From: Candidatus Heimdallarchaeota archaeon
GTDB lineage: Archaea > Asgardarchaeota > Heimdallarchaeia > Heimdallarchaeales > Heimdallarchaeaceae
DNA length: 64,000 nt
Direction: 5' to 3'
NCBI GenBank assembly: GCA_030603365.1
Contig: JAUVXV010000002.1
Span: forward strand, 402,757-466,756
Shown here: piece after piece, positions 33,115-47,027 of the stretch
How positions within the stretch are numbered: position 1 is the stretch's first letter
How the letters are laid out: every line of letters begins with the position of its first letter
The notes under the pieces: model-generated
Database searches by the model: none
The model's input: only the letters and a program-made list of their open reading frames with translations
Told to the model about the DNA's origin: nothing
Translations under genes and position numbers: made by a program

Positions 33115-33993
33115 TCATCTTAGAAATTTATAATGGGTATCTAAGCATATTCCTATACACCCTGGACCTGTATGTGTAACAATCGTCATTCCGAGTTCAT
33201 CTATGGACACATTAAAATCTTTAGGTTGGATTACATCTTCTATGTGTTTCTTTAACATGTTAGCAGATTCTTCATTTTTCGCATGCATTATGTATGCATT
33301 GAATTTTTCTGGTCTTCCAGTTTTTTCATAGACAGAATTAAAGGATTCTATTACAGCATTTTTGTGCCCTCTAACTGTTTTTACAACTTCCATTTTTCCT
33401 GAGATGAAGTTAATAATAGGTTTCATGTCAGCAAGTTTAGCAATCCAATATTTTGACTTACTCAATCTACCTCCTCTATGTAAATAGATTAAGTCAGCAA
33501 CTGTAAAACCTACTTCAAGTTTATTTCGATATTCATCAAGTTTAACCATTATTTCTTCAGGTGATAGGTCCTCTTGCGCTAATTCAGAAGCCATAATTGC
33601 AAGTATTCCTATACCAAATGTAGCTAATTGCGAATCATATATGTAAACTTTAGCAGCATCTTCTACTTTTTTCTCGTACATCCTTTTTGCATTAATAGCA
33701 GTATTATAAGATCCAGATATTCCCGAAGAAATTACAATGTTAAGTACTTCATCGGCTTCTTTTCCTAATTGTTCAAAAAGTTCATACTGGTGATGAAGTG
33801 TCGGATTAGCAGTTTGAGGATATTCTTTTGATGCATAAAATTTCTCATAGAACTGCTCTAAGGTTATATCAACACCTTCATAGTAGATGTCGTCACCAAA
33901 TCTAATTACAGTAGGTACAAGAGAAAGGTCGTATTTTTTTACCATTTCAGGTGTAAGATCAGCTGCACTATCAGTCATTATTTTTACTGTCAT
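33115..33993 (-). CDS. DegV/FakB fatty-acid-binding protein (paralogue 1)
   Basis: IMTDSAADL, PQTANP, ISSGISGSY, YDS, LHRGGRL, KPII, KTVRG, THTGPG. Confidence 0.92.
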   Translation of the reverse strand: MTVKIMTDSAADLTPEMVKKYDLSLVPTVIRFGDDIYYEGVDITLEQFYEKFYASKEYPQTANPTLHHQYELFEQLGKEADEVLNIVISSGISGSYNTAINAKRMYEKKVEDAAKVYIYDSQLATFGIGILAIMASELAQEDLSPEEIMVKLDEYRNKLEVGFTVADLIYLHRGGRLSKSKYWIAKLADMKPIINFISGKMEVVKTVRGHKNAVIESFNSVYEKTGRPEKFNAYIMHAKNEESANMLKKHIEDVIQPKDFNVSIDELGMTIVTHTGPGCIGICLDTHYKFLR

Positions 33994-34050: not shown

Positions 34051-34938
34051 TTACAATTCCACATTTCGAGTCATAATAATAACTATAGTTCCAGGACCTG
34101 TGTGAGAAGTAATGACACCACCTATATCGTATATCTCACCGATGTTTATCTCTGGGTATTTCTCCTTTATCTTCTTTGCATAAGCTTCTGTTTCAGTTCT
34201 AAAAGCAGCTTGAGTGAAATGCACTGTAAGATTGCTCAAATCATCTTCAATATCATTTAGTTGCATTTCTAATATAGTATCAATTGCTTTATCTAAACCT
34301 GTTACACTTTTTACAACCTCAACTTTTCCGTCTACGAGGCTTAATATAGGTATTTTAGATAGAAGAGATCCTAGATAGTATTTAGCCCTACTTAAACGTC
34401 CACCATCAAAGAGCCATCTTAAATCAGAAACAGTGAAATAGAAAGAGTAATCCTTTTCTCTCCATTCATCTAGCTTTTTGACAATTTCCTCTGCTTTCAA
34501 ACCTTGTTTTACAAAATTAGTGGCTTTGATCACAATTAAACCGAAGGGAGTACTTGTTGATCTACTATCATATACGAAGATTTTAGCTCCATCAGGATTG
34601 GATTTTTCATACATTTTCTTTGCCATTCTAGCATTATTTACTGCCCCACTTATATCACTAGAAAGATGCATGGAAATTATCTGATCGTATTTATCTCCAT
34701 AAGTTTCATATGCCTTTAACAAATCAGCTTGTGTTGATTGAGAGGTAGTAGGATGTTCAGTAGTTTTAGATAATTTCTCATAAAATTCTGAAGTTTTGAG
34801 ATTTTCTAATTCTTTATACTCTTCTACACCAAACATAATTTGCATGGGAACCCATTGAACGTCGTATTTATCATATAGTGTTACGTCATTAGGAAAATTC
34901 AAATCTGCACTTGTATCACAAATAATCTTAATAGTCAT
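34051..34938 (-). CDS. DegV/FakB fatty-acid-binding protein (paralogue 2)
   Basis: ICDTSADL, PTTSQ, LSSDISG, YDSR, GGRL, SHTGPG. Confidence 0.9.
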   Translation of the reverse strand: MTIKIICDTSADLNFPNDVTLYDKYDVQWVPMQIMFGVEEYKELENLKTSEFYEKLSKTTEHPTTSQSTQADLLKAYETYGDKYDQIISMHLSSDISGAVNNARMAKKMYEKSNPDGAKIFVYDSRSTSTPFGLIVIKATNFVKQGLKAEEIVKKLDEWREKDYSFYFTVSDLRWLFDGGRLSRAKYYLGSLLSKIPILSLVDGKVEVVKSVTGLDKAIDTILEMQLNDIEDDLSNLTVHFTQAAFRTETEAYAKKIKEKYPEINIGEIYDIGGVITSHTGPGTIVIIMTRNVEL

Positions 34939-35085: not shown

Positions 35086-35862
35086 ATGATTAGAAATCGA
35101 AGGATTAAGGAATCAATGTTGCAAAGAATCAAGACAAAACTCCTAGTAAATCTTACAATCATTCTGTTTGTAGGATTGACTTTATCTCAATTAGCCAATA
35201 ATAATACTACATATGCAGACTTTGAAAATGAAGTAAACAGAAAAGAAGCTATCTGCTTCCCTAATTTGAGTCCAATTAATGATTCTTTTCTAGAAAGACC
35301 TATCCTGGATGTTTCCAAATCAGTTAATGCTACAGTTATCAATCCAGATTTGAGTGAATGGATATGTGTAAATGTGACAATAACAAACATAAGCAATTAT
35401 ACTGCTTACAACTTAACTACAACAGATCCTGGATTTGAAGATTGGGCTGTTTCCAGCCTTAATGTAACTGAGCAAAAGTGGGTTATCATTGAAAATAACG
35501 CATCAGTTTATTATTTTTATTACTTTAAACCATTATCAGAGGGGAATTTCACTTTAGAACCAACTGACATAGTATATGTTGATGTTAATGGAACAGAATA
35601 TCATGCTCAATCTCAGCGATTTATTATAATTGTAATAAAACCAGAGAGTATCGAAGTTATAGATGCAGAGTTATGGTTAAACATTCTTTATTACACTATT
35701 ATCATATCAGGTGTTTTAGGAGCTATCGTCTTGTTTGACCTCTTTGTTATTAAGAGACCAAAAGGAACTAAAAAACAGAAACAAAAAGTAGTGGATAAAA
35801 AGGGTACTTCAACTCAAAAGAATAAGAAACAAGTTAAACGAAAAACCAAAAAGCGAAGATAG
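35086..35862 (+). CDS. Translocon-associated protein beta (TRAP-beta/SSR2)-like type I membrane protein
   Basis: Signal/anchor; beta-sandwich PILDVSKS..VNVTITNIS..AYNLTTTD..F..KW.I..N.SV.Y...KPLSEGNF...IVY that parallels SSR2; C-terminal TM plus poly-basic tail; many NxS/T sequons. Confidence 0.6.
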   Translation: MIRNRRIKESMLQRIKTKLLVNLTIILFVGLTLSQLANNNTTYADFENEVNRKEAICFPNLSPINDSFLERPILDVSKSVNATVINPDLSEWICVNVTITNISNYTAYNLTTTDPGFEDWAVSSLNVTEQKWVIIENNASVYYFYYFKPLSEGNFTLEPTDIVYVDVNGTEYHAQSQRFIIIVIKPESIEVIDAELWLNILYYTIIISGVLGAIVLFDLFVIKRPKGTKKQKQKVVDKKGTSTQKNKKQVKRKTKKRR

Positions 35863-35919
35863 ATTTTCTTTCTTTTACAAATCTCATATTTTATATAGGC
35901 TTTAGTCAAAGTGTGATTA

Positions 35920-36903
35920 ATGTCCTTAAAAGAAATTCTCGATATGGATTTAAAGTATCTATTAGTAGGCGGGAAAGGTGGAGTCGGAAAGACCAGTGTT
36001 GCTTCTTCTTTAGCTATTGCATTAGCTGAACATGGAAAAAAAGTTCTCATAATTTCAACTGATCCCGCGCATAGTATTTCTGATTCTTTTGATATGGATT
36101 TTTCTAAAGGAGAAATTACAAGGGTTAAAGGAGTTGTAGGTGATTTATTTGCACTTGAAATTAATCCTTCTGCCGCAGGTGAAGAAATCTCACAAGCAAT
36201 AGGTCAACCAATGGGAGCAGACCAATTTTCACAATTTGCAGCTATTCCTGGTTTAGGTGAACTGCAACAAGGTCTGGGAGAAGATCTAAAATCAATCCCT
36301 CCCCCAGGAATGGATGAAGCTTTATCTTTTGCAAAAATACTTGAATATGCTGAAGATGATGTTTACGATACAATAGTCCTAGATACAGCTCCCACAGGTC
36401 ACACTCTAAGATTATTGAACATTCCCGAGTTTTTAGATTCGTTTCTTGGTCGTATATTAAAAATGAAAACTTTTCTCTCTAATGCTATGAGCATGATGAA
36501 ATCTCTTTTTGGAGGTGGCCAAGAGAAGGATAGAACTATAGAGACATTAGAAGCAATGAAAGAGAAAGTATTAGTTGCGAGAGACAAATTAATGGATGAA
36601 ACTAAAACTCAATTTGTTAAAGTCCTTATACCTACTATGATGAGTGTCTTTGAAACAGAAAGACTTGCTGAAGAACTAGATCAACATCTCATTCCTCACA
36701 AATATACTATTATCAATATGGTAAATCCAGAAAATAGTAATTGTCCATATTGTATGCATCGACATCAAGAACATCAAAAAAACATTGAATATATTCAATC
36801 TACGTTTCCATTGGATCAACTAACTACAATTGAAGCATTTGATAGAGAAATAAGAGGTCTAGATATGCTTAAAATTCTTAATTCAAAGCTATTAAAAGAG
36901 TGA
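35920..36903 (+). CDS. Get3/TRC40-type ArsA family ATPase
   Basis: GGKGGVGKT, STDPAHS, PGMDEA, LDTAPTGHTLRLL, Met-rich insert KMKTFLSNAMSMMKSLFGG and C-terminal CPYC; single ATPase domain. Confidence 0.88.
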   Translation: MSLKEILDMDLKYLLVGGKGGVGKTSVASSLAIALAEHGKKVLIISTDPAHSISDSFDMDFSKGEITRVKGVVGDLFALEINPSAAGEEISQAIGQPMGADQFSQFAAIPGLGELQQGLGEDLKSIPPPGMDEALSFAKILEYAEDDVYDTIVLDTAPTGHTLRLLNIPEFLDSFLGRILKMKTFLSNAMSMMKSLFGGGQEKDRTIETLEAMKEKVLVARDKLMDETKTQFVKVLIPTMMSVFETERLAEELDQHLIPHKYTIINMVNPENSNCPYCMHRHQEHQKNIEYIQSTFPLDQLTTIEAFDREIRGLDMLKILNSKLLKE

Positions 36904-36907
36904 TAGT

Positions 36908-37708
36908 ATGGGTATGCATTCTGATGCTGTGAAATTAATAGAAAAAGATTCTAAGAGTTCATATGCTGATGCTCATTGTCATCTTGTACCTGAATGGTAT
37001 ACTAAAGACGATATAAGTGAAATCACTGTTAAAGCTAAGGAGAATGGTGTAAAGATTATTATTAACAGTGCAATTGATCCCGCACATTACAAATTTGGTC
37101 TGGAGACTACAAAGCACGATAGTATCTTTTTATCAATAGGTGTGGAACCAACAAAAGTCTCTGATGAACGAATTCATGAATTCAAGGAATTTTTCAACTC
37201 AAACAAAGAAAAAATTGTCGCAATAGGAGAAATAGGATTAGATTTTCATTGGGTTAAGGAACCAGAAAAAAGAACCAAGCAAGAAACTCACTTCAACTCA
37301 TTGATCGATTTTGCTATAATTAATGAGAAACCTATTGTGGTTCATTCAAGAGGTGCAGAAACTAGAGCAATTGAAATATTAAAACAAAAGGGAGTAGAAG
37401 ATGTTCTAATGCACTGTTTTGAGGGAACAGAAGAACAAGCGAGAGAAATTTCAACACTTTCTTGGTATGTTACTGTTCCTACTAGCACAATCTATAGAAA
37501 GAACTTTCAGAAGATTCTAAAGTCAGTTTCAATTGATAGTCTAATGCTTGAAACTGATAGTCCGTTTCATTCTTTAGAAAAAGGTCAACAGAACACCCCA
37601 TCAAGTATTCCAACTTTATGCAGACATGCAGCTAGAATTTTAGAAATTGATGAACAAGATCTTGCAGAAATAACATTCAATAATACCAAGACTTTCTATA
37701 GAATCTAA
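36908..37708 (+). CDS. tatD: TatD family hydrolase/DNase
   Basis: DAHCH, AIGEIGLD, VHSR, MHCF, LETDSP. Confidence 0.9.
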   Translation: MGMHSDAVKLIEKDSKSSYADAHCHLVPEWYTKDDISEITVKAKENGVKIIINSAIDPAHYKFGLETTKHDSIFLSIGVEPTKVSDERIHEFKEFFNSNKEKIVAIGEIGLDFHWVKEPEKRTKQETHFNSLIDFAIINEKPIVVHSRGAETRAIEILKQKGVEDVLMHCFEGTEEQAREISTLSWYVTVPTSTIYRKNFQKILKSVSIDSLMLETDSPFHSLEKGQQNTPSSIPTLCRHAARILEIDEQDLAEITFNNTKTFYRI

Positions 37709-37715
37709 GATTTAT

Positions 37716-38552
37716 CTAAATAAATGCTACACTAGCATATTCCTTTCCAAGCACATAATAGGAAATGATAGATTGCTTAGTTTCAGTTTTTGGAACTTTT
37801 CTGAATCGTCTGATAATATCTTTAGTATTTTTAGTATACTTAGAACTTGATGAGTAAAAAATACTCTCTACTTCCTTTGTTTTACTAACGATGTTAATCC
37901 TATGGTTTGCTTCTTTGAATAGATTGTGAGCTTTTCTATCTTGAGAAATATTGGTCCATTGAGTATGAAAATAATGGTATAGATTATGGTTTGTAAAAGA
38001 AAATGGAAATGTTTTCTGAGTGTTTACTTTCCCTTTTCCTTCTTTTACTAAATTGTCATTCTCTGTTATTGTATAGGCACTAATGCGCTTATTCAATTCA
38101 ATTGCTTTCTTCCTAATTTCGTTAATGTTTTTTGCGTCAGGAATGAACTTTACTAACTCTGCTGTGAAGAGTCCAGATGCAGGACCAATGGTTGGTGAAT
38201 CAACTAAATCAATCGTAATACCAGAAACCATTTTCTTTGCTAAAAGTGCATGTTCATAAACCGAAGGAGTGAAGAGTGAAGAGTGTATACTGATCAAGGA
38301 GTCATATTCTTCAGCAAGGAAAGTGTAGAGTTCTACAAATTCTTTTATGTTTGGAGCGAAAATATTTGCTTTTTTATCTTGATTTACAATCGACATTAAT
38401 CTTCCTGTGTTCAAGCTGTGAGTATGCTCTCTTTCAGAATAAATCTGTCCTTTAGAATCTTCTATTGAATAACCTACTGGGAAAATTTGCTCTTCTTTGT
38501 ATAGTTCCAATGGTATCTCTCTGGAGCTATCTATTACAATTGCTTGTTTCAT
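37716..38552 (-). CDS. Degenerate DegV family protein (paralogue 3)
   Basis: IVIDSS, ISIHSS and LVDS retained; the GGR and HxGPG motifs are lost. Confidence 0.65.
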   Translation of the reverse strand: MKQAIVIDSSREIPLELYKEEQIFPVGYSIEDSKGQIYSEREHTHSLNTGRLMSIVNQDKKANIFAPNIKEFVELYTFLAEEYDSLISIHSSLFTPSVYEHALLAKKMVSGITIDLVDSPTIGPASGLFTAELVKFIPDAKNINEIRKKAIELNKRISAYTITENDNLVKEGKGKVNTQKTFPFSFTNHNLYHYFHTQWTNISQDRKAHNLFKEANHRINIVSKTKEVESIFYSSSSKYTKNTKDIIRRFRKVPKTETKQSIISYYVLGKEYASVAFI

Positions 38553-38869: not shown

Positions 38870-39187
38870 TTAGAATTGTACTTCAATATTATTTGATGGA
38901 AAACCAAAGTCTTCAAGAATTGATTTAATCTTAAATCTATGATCTCCTTGAAGTTCAATTCTACCCTCTTTTTGAGTTCCACCACAAGCAAGCTTAGATT
39001 TCAGTTTCTTTGCTAATCCACCGAGATCTACTTCATTAGGATCAATTCCAGTTACAAGAGTATACTTTTTACCGTACCTTCTTTTTTCCATGAAAACTCT
39101 AATAATCTGTTCTTCTTTCGCAATTTCCTCGCAGACGCATAGGTCTTGAGGAAGACCACATACCATACATAATTCGTCTTCTAGCAC
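38870..39187 (-). CDS. Translation initiation factor aIF1 (SUI1/eIF1), GTG start
   Basis: [44 protein letters not shown]. Confidence 0.95.
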
Positions 39188-39288
39188 ATCAATAAGAAAC
39201 GTGAAAGGTTATTTATATTTTTTCATCTAAACTTTTAATTAAACTAACAAGGAAATTATTAAAATAGAAGAACAAAATCTTAGGTTTA

Positions 39289-40908
39289 ATGACTATTCTA
39301 ATCGTAGACGCTCTTGCAGCTAATGAAGGACGTAGAAAGTTCTCTCGAGATGCAATAGGAGTAGGTCCACGATTATTAGCAGGGATTTGTGAAAAAAATA
39401 ATAAAGATGCAAAAATCGTTAGAGTAGAGGATATTTTAGAGAACAATGACTTCTTCAACCAAACAGATTTTGAGGTTTTTTTAATAAGTGGAATGAGTGT
39501 TGACAAAATAGCTGTTAAAAGAGTAATCAAGCATATTTACAGATATTCATCAAAATCTAGGGTAATTTTAGGAGGTCCAATAGTTTCAGACATAGCTATT
39601 GTGAAAGAAATGGATGTTTTAGCAGGGGTTGTAGGTGAAGGAGAATCCGTTTTAGAAGATTTAATCAGAAGCGATTTTTCTTTTCAATCTTTTGAAGATA
39701 ATCATGCCAAGCAATATGAACTAAATAGATTACAAGACATTTGGTTGATTAAACAAAACACACTAAGTACAGCTTCCATTTTTGATAAATATCCTGCTTC
39801 TACAGATCGAATTACTGATTATCCAGATTTTTGGTTTTCGAAAGTTTATGTTGAAATCACAAGAGGTTGTTCCAATCATTTTAGAGGAGAAATTGTCAAA
39901 ACAGAAGGAGGTTGCAGTGATTGTGGAAACTGTGAAGATCCTGATTCAGTAGTTACAGGAGATTGTCCTGAAGACATTCCTCCAGGTTGTGGATTCTGCT
40001 CAGTACCTGCTACATTTGGTGCTCCAAGAAGTAAATCAAAGAATCTAATATTAAATGAAGTTGAGGAACTTTTCAAAAAAGGAGTTCGAAGAATAATCCT
40101 TTCTTCACCTGGATTTTTTGATTATTATAGAGGAAATAATGAAGTTTCAATCTTTTCTCCTACAATACCAGCTGCCAATTTAACAATTATATCCGAGTTG
40201 CTTGAGGAACTCGTAAGATTGAGAGATCAACAGGAAGAAATCTGTAGTATTTCTATTGAAAATGTTAAACCTTCTCTTGTTACAGAGTCTTTAGCTAAGA
40301 TGTTGGGAAAATATCTTCCAGGTACGGCCATAAGTATAGGATGCGAAACTTTTGATACCAAACACAGCTCAGCAATAGGAAGACCAGCTTCATCAAATCA
40401 AGCATTAGAAGCAGCTAAGTTGTTTAAGAATGAAGGTCTAGATACGCAAATATATTTGATTCACTCTTTACCAGGTGAAACAGTAAAGTCATTAGAGATT
40501 ACTAGAAAAGTGATTAAGGAAGATTTGAAAGATTTTGTTGAAAAAATTACTGTTTACAAGTATCTTCCATTACCTAATTCTCCATTTACAATTACTAACT
40601 CTAAACAACCTATAGTGAGACATTTCTTAAAAGAAAAACGAGAAGAATTAAAGAAGAATATTATTGAATTTAATAAGAATAAGAAGAGAGATTTAATTGG
40701 TAAAAAACTTGACTTAATAGTTGCTGAAGAAGATTCTCAACGTCAAAACAATTACTTTGCTTATCCAATATTTAGTGGTCCAGCTGTGAGTGTTTATTCA
40801 GAAGAGAATATTTTAAAGCAAACAGTTTCTGCTGAGATTACAGAGGTGTTATCTGATAGACTAGTAAAGGGAAAAATAGTTCGAATTTTCAAACAAAGAG
40901 GTAATTAA
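39289..40908 (+). CDS. B12-binding-domain radical SAM protein with a C-terminal TRAM-like domain
   Basis: DAIGVGPR, ILGGP, EITRGCSN...GCGFCSVP (split Cys motif with a CSDCGNC insert), IGCET. Confidence 0.8.
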   Translation: MTILIVDALAANEGRRKFSRDAIGVGPRLLAGICEKNNKDAKIVRVEDILENNDFFNQTDFEVFLISGMSVDKIAVKRVIKHIYRYSSKSRVILGGPIVSDIAIVKEMDVLAGVVGEGESVLEDLIRSDFSFQSFEDNHAKQYELNRLQDIWLIKQNTLSTASIFDKYPASTDRITDYPDFWFSKVYVEITRGCSNHFRGEIVKTEGGCSDCGNCEDPDSVVTGDCPEDIPPGCGFCSVPATFGAPRSKSKNLILNEVEELFKKGVRRIILSSPGFFDYYRGNNEVSIFSPTIPAANLTIISELLEELVRLRDQQEEICSISIENVKPSLVTESLAKMLGKYLPGTAISIGCETFDTKHSSAIGRPASSNQALEAAKLFKNEGLDTQIYLIHSLPGETVKSLEITRKVIKEDLKDFVEKITVYKYLPLPNSPFTITNSKQPIVRHFLKEKREELKKNIIEFNKNKKRDLIGKKLDLIVAEEDSQRQNNYFAYPIFSGPAVSVYSEENILKQTVSAEITEVLSDRLVKGKIVRIFKQRGN

Positions 40909-45716: not shown

Positions 45717-46661
45717 TTAGATGGTAACTTCTATTTTGAGTTTTCGTACTAATTCTTTGTATCTGTTTCTGACAGTTACTTCAGTAACAGTGGCAGTTTC
45801 AGCAATTTCTCGCTGAGTTCGCCTCTCTCCTTCAGTAATACCAGCAATATAGATTGATGCAGCTGCTAGACCAGTTGGATCTTTTCCAGCTGTCAGATTA
45901 TGTTCTTTTGCTCTGTTGAGTAATTCAACAGCTTTTCGTGCAGTTCTTCCGCTTAAACGGAGTTCTGCTGCGAAACGAACGATATAATCAGTTGGGTTAG
46001 CTAAAGGAATTTTAATATCAAGCTCCCTGATTATAAGTCTATAGCATCTTCCGAGTTCTTTCTTGGAAATTCTTGAATGACGAGCTATTTCATCTAGTGT
46101 TCGGGGAACACGTCGAATACGTGCTCCAGCATAGGCTGTTGCACCAATCATAGCTTCGATTGAACGTCCTCGGATCAATCTCTTTTCTATTGCTTTACGA
46201 TAAATATTTGCTGCTGTTTCGTTTACACTTCGAGGAATTCCTAGCTGTGATGATAAACGATCTAATTCGGACATGGCATATGCGAGATTACGATCAATTG
46301 AACTGTGTACTCTAGTTCTGATTTGCCATTTTCTGAGACGATAGATTTGCGCTCTTCTCTTAGGAGATAGTTTCTTACCATAGACATCTCGATCTTCCCA
46401 ACCTATTTGTGTTGAAAGTCCTTTGTCATGGATGGTGATAGTAGTAGGTGAACCAACACGACTCCTTTTAGAGCGTTCTTCAGCGGTGAAGGCTCTCCAT
46501 TCAGGACCATCGTCTATCAGCTTTTCCTCTACGACTGTACCACAGTTACGGCAAATATGTTCTCCTCTAGTCTCATCCAGAATAACATCTGTGCTTCCAC
46601 ACTCGGGACATTCCATATCCTCTTCCTCTTCTCTATAGGATGAATCTTGTTTTTTGCTCAT
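45717..46661 (-). CDS. tfb: Transcription initiation factor IIB (TFB)
   Basis: CPECG..CRNCG zinc ribbon, GPEWRAF B-reader, DKGLST, RLRKWQ, LIRGRSIE, TEVTVRNRYKEL. Confidence 0.97.
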   Translation of the reverse strand: MSKKQDSSYREEEEDMECPECGSTDVILDETRGEHICRNCGTVVEEKLIDDGPEWRAFTAEERSKRSRVGSPTTITIHDKGLSTQIGWEDRDVYGKKLSPKRRAQIYRLRKWQIRTRVHSSIDRNLAYAMSELDRLSSQLGIPRSVNETAANIYRKAIEKRLIRGRSIEAMIGATAYAGARIRRVPRTLDEIARHSRISKKELGRCYRLIIRELDIKIPLANPTDYIVRFAAELRLSGRTARKAVELLNRAKEHNLTAGKDPTGLAAASIYIAGITEGERRTQREIAETATVTEVTVRNRYKELVRKLKIEVTI

Positions 46662-47027
46662 TCTTTTATCTACCTACAATTTTTCTATTATTTTCTTAGC
46701 GAAAATGAAGCTTTGCATTACTTCTAGTTGTGGAATTATTTTTGGGGTATTTACGTTGGATTAGTTGCTAGTATTCGATGAGAATCTCTACTCTATTACA
46801 TGTTTAGAACTGTAAAATAGAGAGTCACCCACCAATTTACCAGACTTTTTTTTGAGTTCCGACTTTTAAATCTTTCTCTTTTTATACTTTTCGCTACTCT
46901 TAAAACCTTAGTATCCCATATATAAACCTTTGTGTTACCAAAGGAACATGATGTAAGATTTTAGGAAAGATTTACCGCTTCACATCAACCATATTTTTTT
47001 AGTTTGAAAATACATGATATATTAATT

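Follow-up and report, generated by a model that had tools for sequence, protein, structure and literature searches.

We analyzed a 64,000-nucleotide stretch of DNA from Candidatus Heimdallarchaeota archaeon (assembly GCA_030603365.1, contig JAUVXV010000002.1, positions 402,757 to 466,756 of the forward strand; hereafter the window), in which a gene for a TRAP-beta-like membrane protein is directly followed by a gene for a Get3/TRC40-type ATPase. The two genes were adjacent in 61 of 74 judgeable loci of Asgard archaea, and in 9 of the 13 genome families that carry the small TRAP-beta-like gene. Both proteins have already been published for Asgard archaea, with TRAP-beta homologs reported by Eme et al. 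2023 (PMC10307638) and Carilo et al. 2024 (PMC11417166); the linkage of the two genes is new, and it was not described in the literature searched. On balance, and with modest confidence, we regard the pair as a candidate two-gene module, persistent in evolution, that belongs to the Asgard machinery for membrane-protein biogenesis.

Identity of the two proteins

The first gene of the pair lies in an open reading frame (ORF) of 258 amino acids on the plus strand (35086..35862), predicted to encode a type I membrane protein. Because 28 close homologs align from an invariant methionine at residue 11 of this ORF, the true start is probably at 35116 on the same strand, which would give a protein of 248 amino acids. 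Like all members of the family, the protein combines a signal peptide, one beta-sandwich, one transmembrane (TM) helix and a cytoplasmic tail, and its gene is present in one copy and has a small, fixed architecture. The predicted signal peptide (35116..35199, plus strand) consists of MLQRIKTK, a hydrophobic core and SQLA, an n/h/c pattern that can be read in the sequences of all family members, and the AlphaFold2 (AF2) model has a hydrophobic N-terminal helix at residues 2-28. In the Heimdallarchaeaceae form, a poorly conserved spacer of 30 residues follows the signal peptide.

The extracytoplasmic beta-sandwich (35287..35643, plus strand) is a domain of the DUF11/CARDB/TRAP-beta superfamily, and is rich in N-x-S/T; the AF2 model, of 248 residues, has a sandwich at residues 64-173. 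The predicted local distance difference test score (pLDDT) of the model is 87-96 in the sandwich and 77 on average, and the tail is disordered. The sandwich contains a conserved motif, I-x-N-x-G-N-x-T-A-Y-N-(V/L)-T, also given for this protein as V-N-V-T-I-x-N-I-G-N-x-T-A-Y-N-L-T. There are 14 N-x-S/T sequons across the whole ORF, and the protein is probably N-glycosylated. The single TM helix (35665..35751, plus strand; AF2 helix 184-212) leads into a Lys/Arg-rich cytoplasmic tail of 36 residues (35752..35859, plus strand), which ends in KKRR and contains 19 Lys or Arg residues versus one Asp or Glu.

Several independent comparisons placed this protein next to TRAP-beta. In Pfam, the 258-residue ORF scored 26.1 bits with TRAP_beta (PF05753), above the cutoff of 22.4, and 17.6 bits with BatD, below its cutoff of 24.1; the TRAP_beta match alone is unspecific, because the control genome, that of M. 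acetivorans, also matches this family. Among the 72 TRAP-beta-like sequences of all lineages in our alignment A3, TRAP_beta was matched by 70 (best E 9e-18), BatD by 37, DUF11 by 27 and CARDB by 10. When the profile of this alignment was searched against all PDB sequences, three TRAP-beta sequences came out on top (E 5.6e-8 to 1.1e-7), with the next match at 0.008. Structure comparison of the model gave the same picture: Foldseek ranks 1-5 were TRAP-beta chains (E 4e-9 to 5e-8; TM-score 0.62-0.67 on the target), followed at lower ranks by TRAP-alpha chains around 1e-6 and a CARDB domain (3idu) at 8e-5. These fold matches were carried by residues 58-176. VIA re-alignment to TRAP-beta gave Z scores of 15.0-15.8 over 145-155 residues (root mean square deviation 5.1-9.6 A) and covered the sandwich together with the TM helix, which pairs with its counterpart in solved TRAP-beta chains (aligned range 59-217); the best match other than TRAP-beta had a Z score of at most 12.2.

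Two points call for caution in this assignment. A beta-sandwich defined by geometry alone is a common fold: a geometry-only VIA search of cluster representatives listed many unrelated sandwiches, at Z 9-12, and TRAP-beta was not among them. The DUF11/CARDB superfamily is also very large: a search covering 1.84 billion proteins recovered 14,869 representative proteins at E <= 0.001, most of them giant repeat proteins. Because the fold is common and the superfamily so large, we word the claim as follows: TRAP-beta is what the product of 35086-35862 most resembles in its sequence, its architecture and the structure of its whole chain. No match to Pfam TRAP_alpha or TRAP-gamma was found in this genome, of 3.65 Mb and 89% complete, although the absence of these subunits is not thereby shown. 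Detection of TRAP subunits in Asgard archaea required methods more sensitive than Pfam (PMC10307638).

Genomic context provided an independent route to the same identity. In one family (f20), the TRAP-beta-like gene is located directly downstream of STT3/AglB, co-oriented with it, in 5/5 loci with gaps of about 0-26 bp (L054:2854-5624, L055, L056, L057 and L058). This arrangement supports the TRAP-beta identity and ties the protein to the N-glycosylation/translocon machinery; the STT3/AglB linkage is new here. One f20 contig carries the NCBI label 'Korarchaeota', and the genome collection places this Njord-like family in the Asgard phylum. In the two f20 genomes where Get3 was located, it is on another contig.

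The second gene of the pair (35920..36903, plus strand) encodes a single-domain ATPase of 327 amino acids. Its motifs are those of the Get3/TRC40 type: a P-loop GGKGGVGKT at residue 17, DPAHS at 48, DTAPTGHT at 155, a Met-rich segment, LKMKTFLSNAMSMMKSLF, at about residues 180-196 after switch II, and CPYC at residues 275-278 (nucleotides 36742-36753), which holds the only two cysteines of the protein. CPYC aligns with CEFC of M. thermautotrophicus Get3 (3zq6), the cysteines of the zinc clasp, and a CxxC was present in 97 of the 98 Asgard Get3 sequences examined. The product may function as a zinc-clasp dimer in tail-anchor targeting.

Assignment to Get3 or ArsA was made by scores against solved structures and NCBIfam models. 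The ORF matched Pfam ArsA_ATPase (PF02374) with 267 bits. It reached 259 bits with TIGR00345 (GET3_arsA_TRC40; cutoff 135), compared with 130 bits for the ArsA equivalog TIGR04291 (cutoff 650) and 138 for NF041417 (cutoff 800). Archaeal Get3 structures were matched over their full length (3zq6, E 1.1e-59; 3ug6, 2.7e-59), eukaryotic Get3/TRC40 at E 1e-41 to 1e-52 (human 6so5, 8e-51; yeast 2woj, 8e-42), and E. coli ArsA more weakly than these, at E 4e-33. Each half of the tandem-domain ArsA1 of Chlamydomonas, a protein studied in the Get3/tail-anchor literature, matched the window Get3 with about 198 bits. The 35920-36903 product is the sole true ArsA/Get3-family member of this genome. No ArsB-family or ACR3/SBF-family gene was found near it in a search for these two families: the ArsB matches are on contigs 6 and 2 and, on the contig of the window (contig 15), at C15:290473, some 147 kb from Get3, and the ACR3/SBF match is on contig 14. 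On these scores, the product is Get3 and not an arsenite pump.

Public records give more ordinary names to relatives of the two proteins, 'arsenical pump-driving ATPase' on one side and 'BatD family protein' or 'DUF11 domain-containing protein' on the other. If these names were followed, the pair would consist of an arsenite-efflux ArsA and a generic DUF11/BatD surface protein, in keeping with the membership of the sandwich in a huge superfamily. We consider this reading highly improbable. It is contradicted by the Get3 and ArsA model scores and by the TRAP_beta comparisons, in which TRAP_beta was ahead of BatD, DUF11 and CARDB whether Pfam, a PDB profile search or Foldseek was used, and it does not agree with a half-size, single-domain ATPase whose cysteines are those of CxxC, with the lack of a nearby arsB or ACR3 gene, or with a single-copy partner gene of small fixed architecture. 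An earlier note on this DNA had already described the TRAP-beta-like order of signal, sandwich, C-terminal TM segment and basic tail, and had set TRAP-beta against generic DUF11 or BatD domains; the architecture is borne out by both sequence and AF2 model, and the generic DUF11/CARDB domain was not the best match. The same note had preferred Get3 to ArsA on the basis of the Met-rich insert and CPYC, and had pointed to a single domain and the absence of arsB or acr3 nearby, all of which agree with the present data.

Conservation of the gene pair in Asgard archaea

To assess conservation of the pair, family profiles were run against 251 genomes of the phylum, the loci were fetched and both genes were located by HMMER/BLAST; organism names rest on exact matches of the proteins encoded there. 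A profile built from Heimdallarchaeaceae only (A1) missed distant members, which were found with the broader profiles A2 and A3; these two also match DUF11 domains in proteins of 500-1300 amino acids of Thor and f13 genomes.

Adjacency was complete in each of the nine families that showed it. The genes are co-oriented in Heimdallarchaeaceae (f1, 25/25 loci) and in two other families of the same order (f2, 9/9 assessable loci; f4, 3/3), as well as in Wukongarchaeota (f8, Wukongarchaeia, 2/2), Sifarchaeia/Borrarchaeum (f19, 4/4) and the single loci of f14 and f21. Two other families belong to the class of f1: in f5, labelled Hodarchaeota, the genes are divergent, head-to-head (11/11), and in f6 they are convergent (5/5). 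The earlier note had made its case depend on whether relatives keep the adjacency, and the pair is kept well beyond close relatives. Every genome family was monophyletic on the Get3 tree, so inheritance of Get3 looks vertical. Clades bearing the adjacency are scattered over this tree, which requires a minimum of five state changes and fits an old linkage that was lost several times.

Several features of individual families were observed in the course of the survey. The f6 gene encodes a protein of roughly 500 amino acids (L050:2057-3559, L051:4008-5540, L130:3008-4486 and L131:3995-5473), which has the TRAP-beta-like domain and the TM helix at its C-terminus and matches Pfam TRAP_beta with 42 bits. 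In at least one locus, the sandwich profile is matched by the N-terminal region as well. A conserved 85-residue ORF lies between this gene and the convergent Get3. One genome bin (G123) contains both an f1-type pair (contig 32, L013) and an f6-type pair (contig 82, L131), and is probably a mixture of two organisms. Neither genome of f26 (G213, a single 4.4-Mb contig, and G165) gave a Get3 match at E <= 1e-20, whereas Get3 was found in nearly all other Asgard families sampled. In f13 (L104-L108), Get3 is flanked in 5/5 loci by genes for an eRF1-like protein, a TtuA-like PP-loop tRNA thiolase and an M50 site-2 protease.

Two candidates were rejected. A gene of roughly 240 amino acids that is divergent to Get3 in Thorarchaeota was considered as a degenerate TRAP-beta; judged from its sequence, its product is soluble and without a predicted TM segment. 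A multi-TM protein of 815-843 amino acids near the Hod-type pair was considered as STT3 and is actually an H+-pyrophosphatase.

Local gene arrangement and transcription

In the window, the order on the plus strand is the TRAP-beta-like ORF, a gap of 57 bp (35863..35919), Get3, 4 bp and a gene for a TatD-family hydrolase of 266 amino acids (36908..37708; Pfam TatD_DNase, 188 bits). The spacer contains a T-rich tract directly after the TRAP-beta-like stop codon (35863-35876), a conserved 20-nucleotide box, CAAATCTCATATTTTATATA (35878-35897), and an SD-like (Shine-Dalgarno-like) GTGAT before Get3 (35913-35917), all on the plus strand. The end of the box is TATA-like (TTTATATA, 35890-35897) and is located 22 nucleotides before the Get3 ATG. 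The box is nearly invariant across the genera of Heimdallarchaeaceae and more conserved than the rest of the spacer (window and L003-L020); box and GTGAT recur together in nearly all Heimdallarchaeaceae loci. It may be a promoter composed of a transcription factor B recognition element (BRE) and TATA, or a regulatory site.

Because the spacer holds both a T-tract and a conserved TATA-like box, there are probably two transcription units here, TRAP-beta alone and then Get3-TatD. The situation appears different in f2, f4 and f21, in which the two genes overlap or are separated by less than 20 bp and a GGTGAT Shine-Dalgarno sequence is embedded in the end of the first one, an arrangement suggestive of a single transcript with coupled translation. 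The earlier note had given the 57-bp spacing, the common orientation and the 4-bp distance to tatD correctly, and had proposed a possible operon. That proposal holds in part: the shared strand, the short gap and the overlapping genes of sister families favor it, whereas the T-tract and the conserved TATA-like box speak against a single operon at this locus.

Among the near neighbors of Get3, DegV, TatD and HAD hydrolase genes were recognized by Pfam. TatD follows Get3 in most f1 loci and in no other family, tblastn never having placed it after Get3 in L027-L071, and is a local neighbor outside the conserved pair. Three paralogs of the DegV family (fatty-acid-binding) are encoded on the minus strand, two upstream of the pair (33115-33993 and 34051-34938) and a third, shorter one downstream (37716-38552), which matches just the first 170 of 280 Pfam model positions. 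The upstream DegV pair is kept in Heimdallarchaeaceae only.

Possible function of the pair and comparison with known systems

We lean, if not strongly, toward the explanation that the two genes have been kept together since both products serve one process, the likeliest being assembly and use of the translocon. The TRAP-beta-like protein would be an accessory of the translocon and the oligosaccharyltransferase (OST), with its sandwich facing outward beside Sec/OST, and Get3 would capture tail-anchored proteins in the cytoplasm and deliver them to the membrane, such that both would contribute to building and using the protein-insertion site. Translocon assembly is suggested as the shared process because the classic Get3/TRC40 clients of eukaryotes include tail-anchored subunits of the translocon, for example Sec61-beta. 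Expression would be organized as two tandem transcription units here and through overlapping genes with coupled translation in sister families. From this gene order, we infer that co- and post-translational targeting may be functionally coupled.

The mechanistic role of TRAP is still debated even in eukaryotes. Occurrence of the pair in the Asgard lineages closest to eukaryotes leads to a concrete hypothesis, an interaction of the two proteins that is either direct or via the translocon, and the STT3/AglB link of f20 adds genomic-context evidence that the Asgard TRAP-beta homolog belongs to the translocon/N-glycosylation machinery.

A number of observations weigh against a functional module. 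Adjacency was absent in Njordarchaeales f23 (0/7), f20 (0/5) and f25 (0/1), together 0/13, and no small TRAP-beta-like gene was found beside Get3 in Thorarchaeota (f10, 10 loci), in f13 (5 loci), or in Odin, Baldr, Frey and the other families sampled. Orientation of the pair varies between co-oriented, divergent and convergent, so strict co-transcription is not conserved, and the spacer in the window looks, by archaeal consensus, like a terminator-like tract plus an internal Get3 promoter. The cytoplasmic tails of most family members, at just 4-21 residues, leave little surface for contact with Get3. Finally, among the window ORFs of at least 100 amino acids between 20 and 50 kb, which served as the control set, a 112-residue ORF (38873-39208) and a B12-radical-SAM gene (39289-40908) are also found near Get3 in Thorarchaeota, and a 318-residue gene (45720-46673) has a homolog beside Get3 there. 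Slow decay of synteny alone can thus keep unrelated genes near Get3 across class-level distances, and because it does, persistence of the pair is in itself no proof of function.

It is possible, with clearly less weight in our judgment than a shared process, that the linkage is neutral inherited synteny: the two genes would have been neighbors in an early Asgard ancestor, would act in separate pathways and would be linked without functional meaning. The 112-residue ORF and the B12-radical-SAM gene, which stay near Get3 in both Heimdallarchaeaceae and Thorarchaeota with no evident functional link, are what such a history would produce; the Njord-type families lost the adjacency and kept both genes, the orientation of the pair changed at least twice, and a separate promoter seems to serve Get3 in Heimdallarchaeaceae. 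Other features are less easily explained by neutral synteny. The pair is the only junction of the local block that survives outside f1, where DegV, TatD and all else were replaced and only the TRAP-beta-like gene and Get3 (plus its antisense shadow ORF) recur; this junction survives in at least three named classes and two more families. The short gaps or overlaps in f2, f4 and f21, with SD, also speak against neutral synteny, and random neighbors would be unlikely both to act on membrane-protein biogenesis, as these two products do. Even if the linkage were merely inherited, the pair would keep its value as a marker of the ancestral gene order of Asgard archaea.

In the window and in L094-L103, the 112-residue ORF, the B12-radical-SAM gene and the 318-residue gene appear to form an ancient block of synteny with no evident functional theme. 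In Thor loci, BacA, a member of the undecaprenyl/dolichyl-pyrophosphate phosphatase family, is encoded two genes from Get3.

A more specific form of coupling would make the TRAP-beta-like protein the membrane receptor or tether of archaeal Get3, like the basic N-terminal motif of Get2/CAML in eukaryotes; tail-anchored clients would be brought to a Sec/Ylp1 insertion site, and in f1 Get3 would bind to the long KKRR tail. A basic motif is what Get2 uses to capture Get3, and we know of no described receptor for archaeal Get3. The only gene persistently linked to Get3 encodes a protein that spans the membrane once and is basic at its cytoplasmic end. By family comparison, a tail of 33-40 residues with a net charge of about +16 is present in f1 only, where it is nearly invariant (QKSKKQ.KRK.KKRR). 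The only gene for a Get1-like protein, DUF106/Ylp1, is unlinked, on contig 1 of this genome; Ylp1 is a Get1 homolog (PMC5868721). However, most tails in the family, with medians of 4-21 residues in most other Asgard families, look like an ordinary positive-inside stop-transfer signal, and rRNA or acidic lipids are equally plausible ligands of a basic tail. Nor is Get3/TRC40 binding known for eukaryotic TRAP-beta. That the TRAP-beta homolog tethers Get3 to Sec/OST and is the missing membrane partner of archaeal Get3 seems unlikely to us. If it were true, the Asgard ancestors of eukaryotes would have had co- and post-translational insertion physically united at a single membrane site, and TRAP at Sec61 and Get1/2 for Get3 would have become separate machines only later. 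A common role in translocon assembly and use remains the explanation that we prefer.

ArsA (E. coli R773, PDB 1F48) belongs to the same P-loop ATPase superfamily (PF02374) as the window Get3; however, it is a tandem duplication of about 580 amino acids with metalloid-binding cysteines, whereas the window protein is half that size and has the CxxC cysteines only. In addition, ArsA is encoded with arsB/arsD/arsR, whereas the window Get3 is unlinked to an arsenic-resistance permease gene of the ArsB or ACR3 family. With Get3/TRC40 (3ZQ6 of M. thermautotrophicus, 3UG6 of M. jannaschii, 6SO5 and 2WOJ), the window ATPase shares one deviant-Walker-A domain with switch I and switch II, a Met-rich helical segment and a CxxC that aligns with the zinc clasp. 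To our knowledge, no Get1/Get2, Get4/5 or Sgt2 partners of Get3 are known in archaea.

The TRAP-beta-like protein resembles TRAP-beta/SSR2 (8B5L chain v, 8B6L chain F and 8RJC chain 6) in having a signal peptide, a sandwich, a TM helix and a cytoplasmic end in the same order. Most Asgard families are also close to it in size (185-220 versus 183 amino acids), and a motif, I-x-N-(V/I)-G-x-x-A, is common to eukaryotic TRAP-beta and the Asgard proteins. Read by eye, the TM segments of Asgard sister families, with (A/T)LP..I.P, resemble human TRAP-beta TLPSIGIPLLLWY. Identity to mammalian TRAP-beta is 14-17%, and, unlike the eukaryotic protein, the Heimdallarchaeaceae form contains a 30-residue spacer, a proline-free TM helix and a polybasic tail of 33-40 residues, and its membrane is the plasma membrane. 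A further difference lies in gene organization: the eukaryotic genes are dispersed, whereas the Asgard gene is linked to Get3 or, in one family, to STT3.

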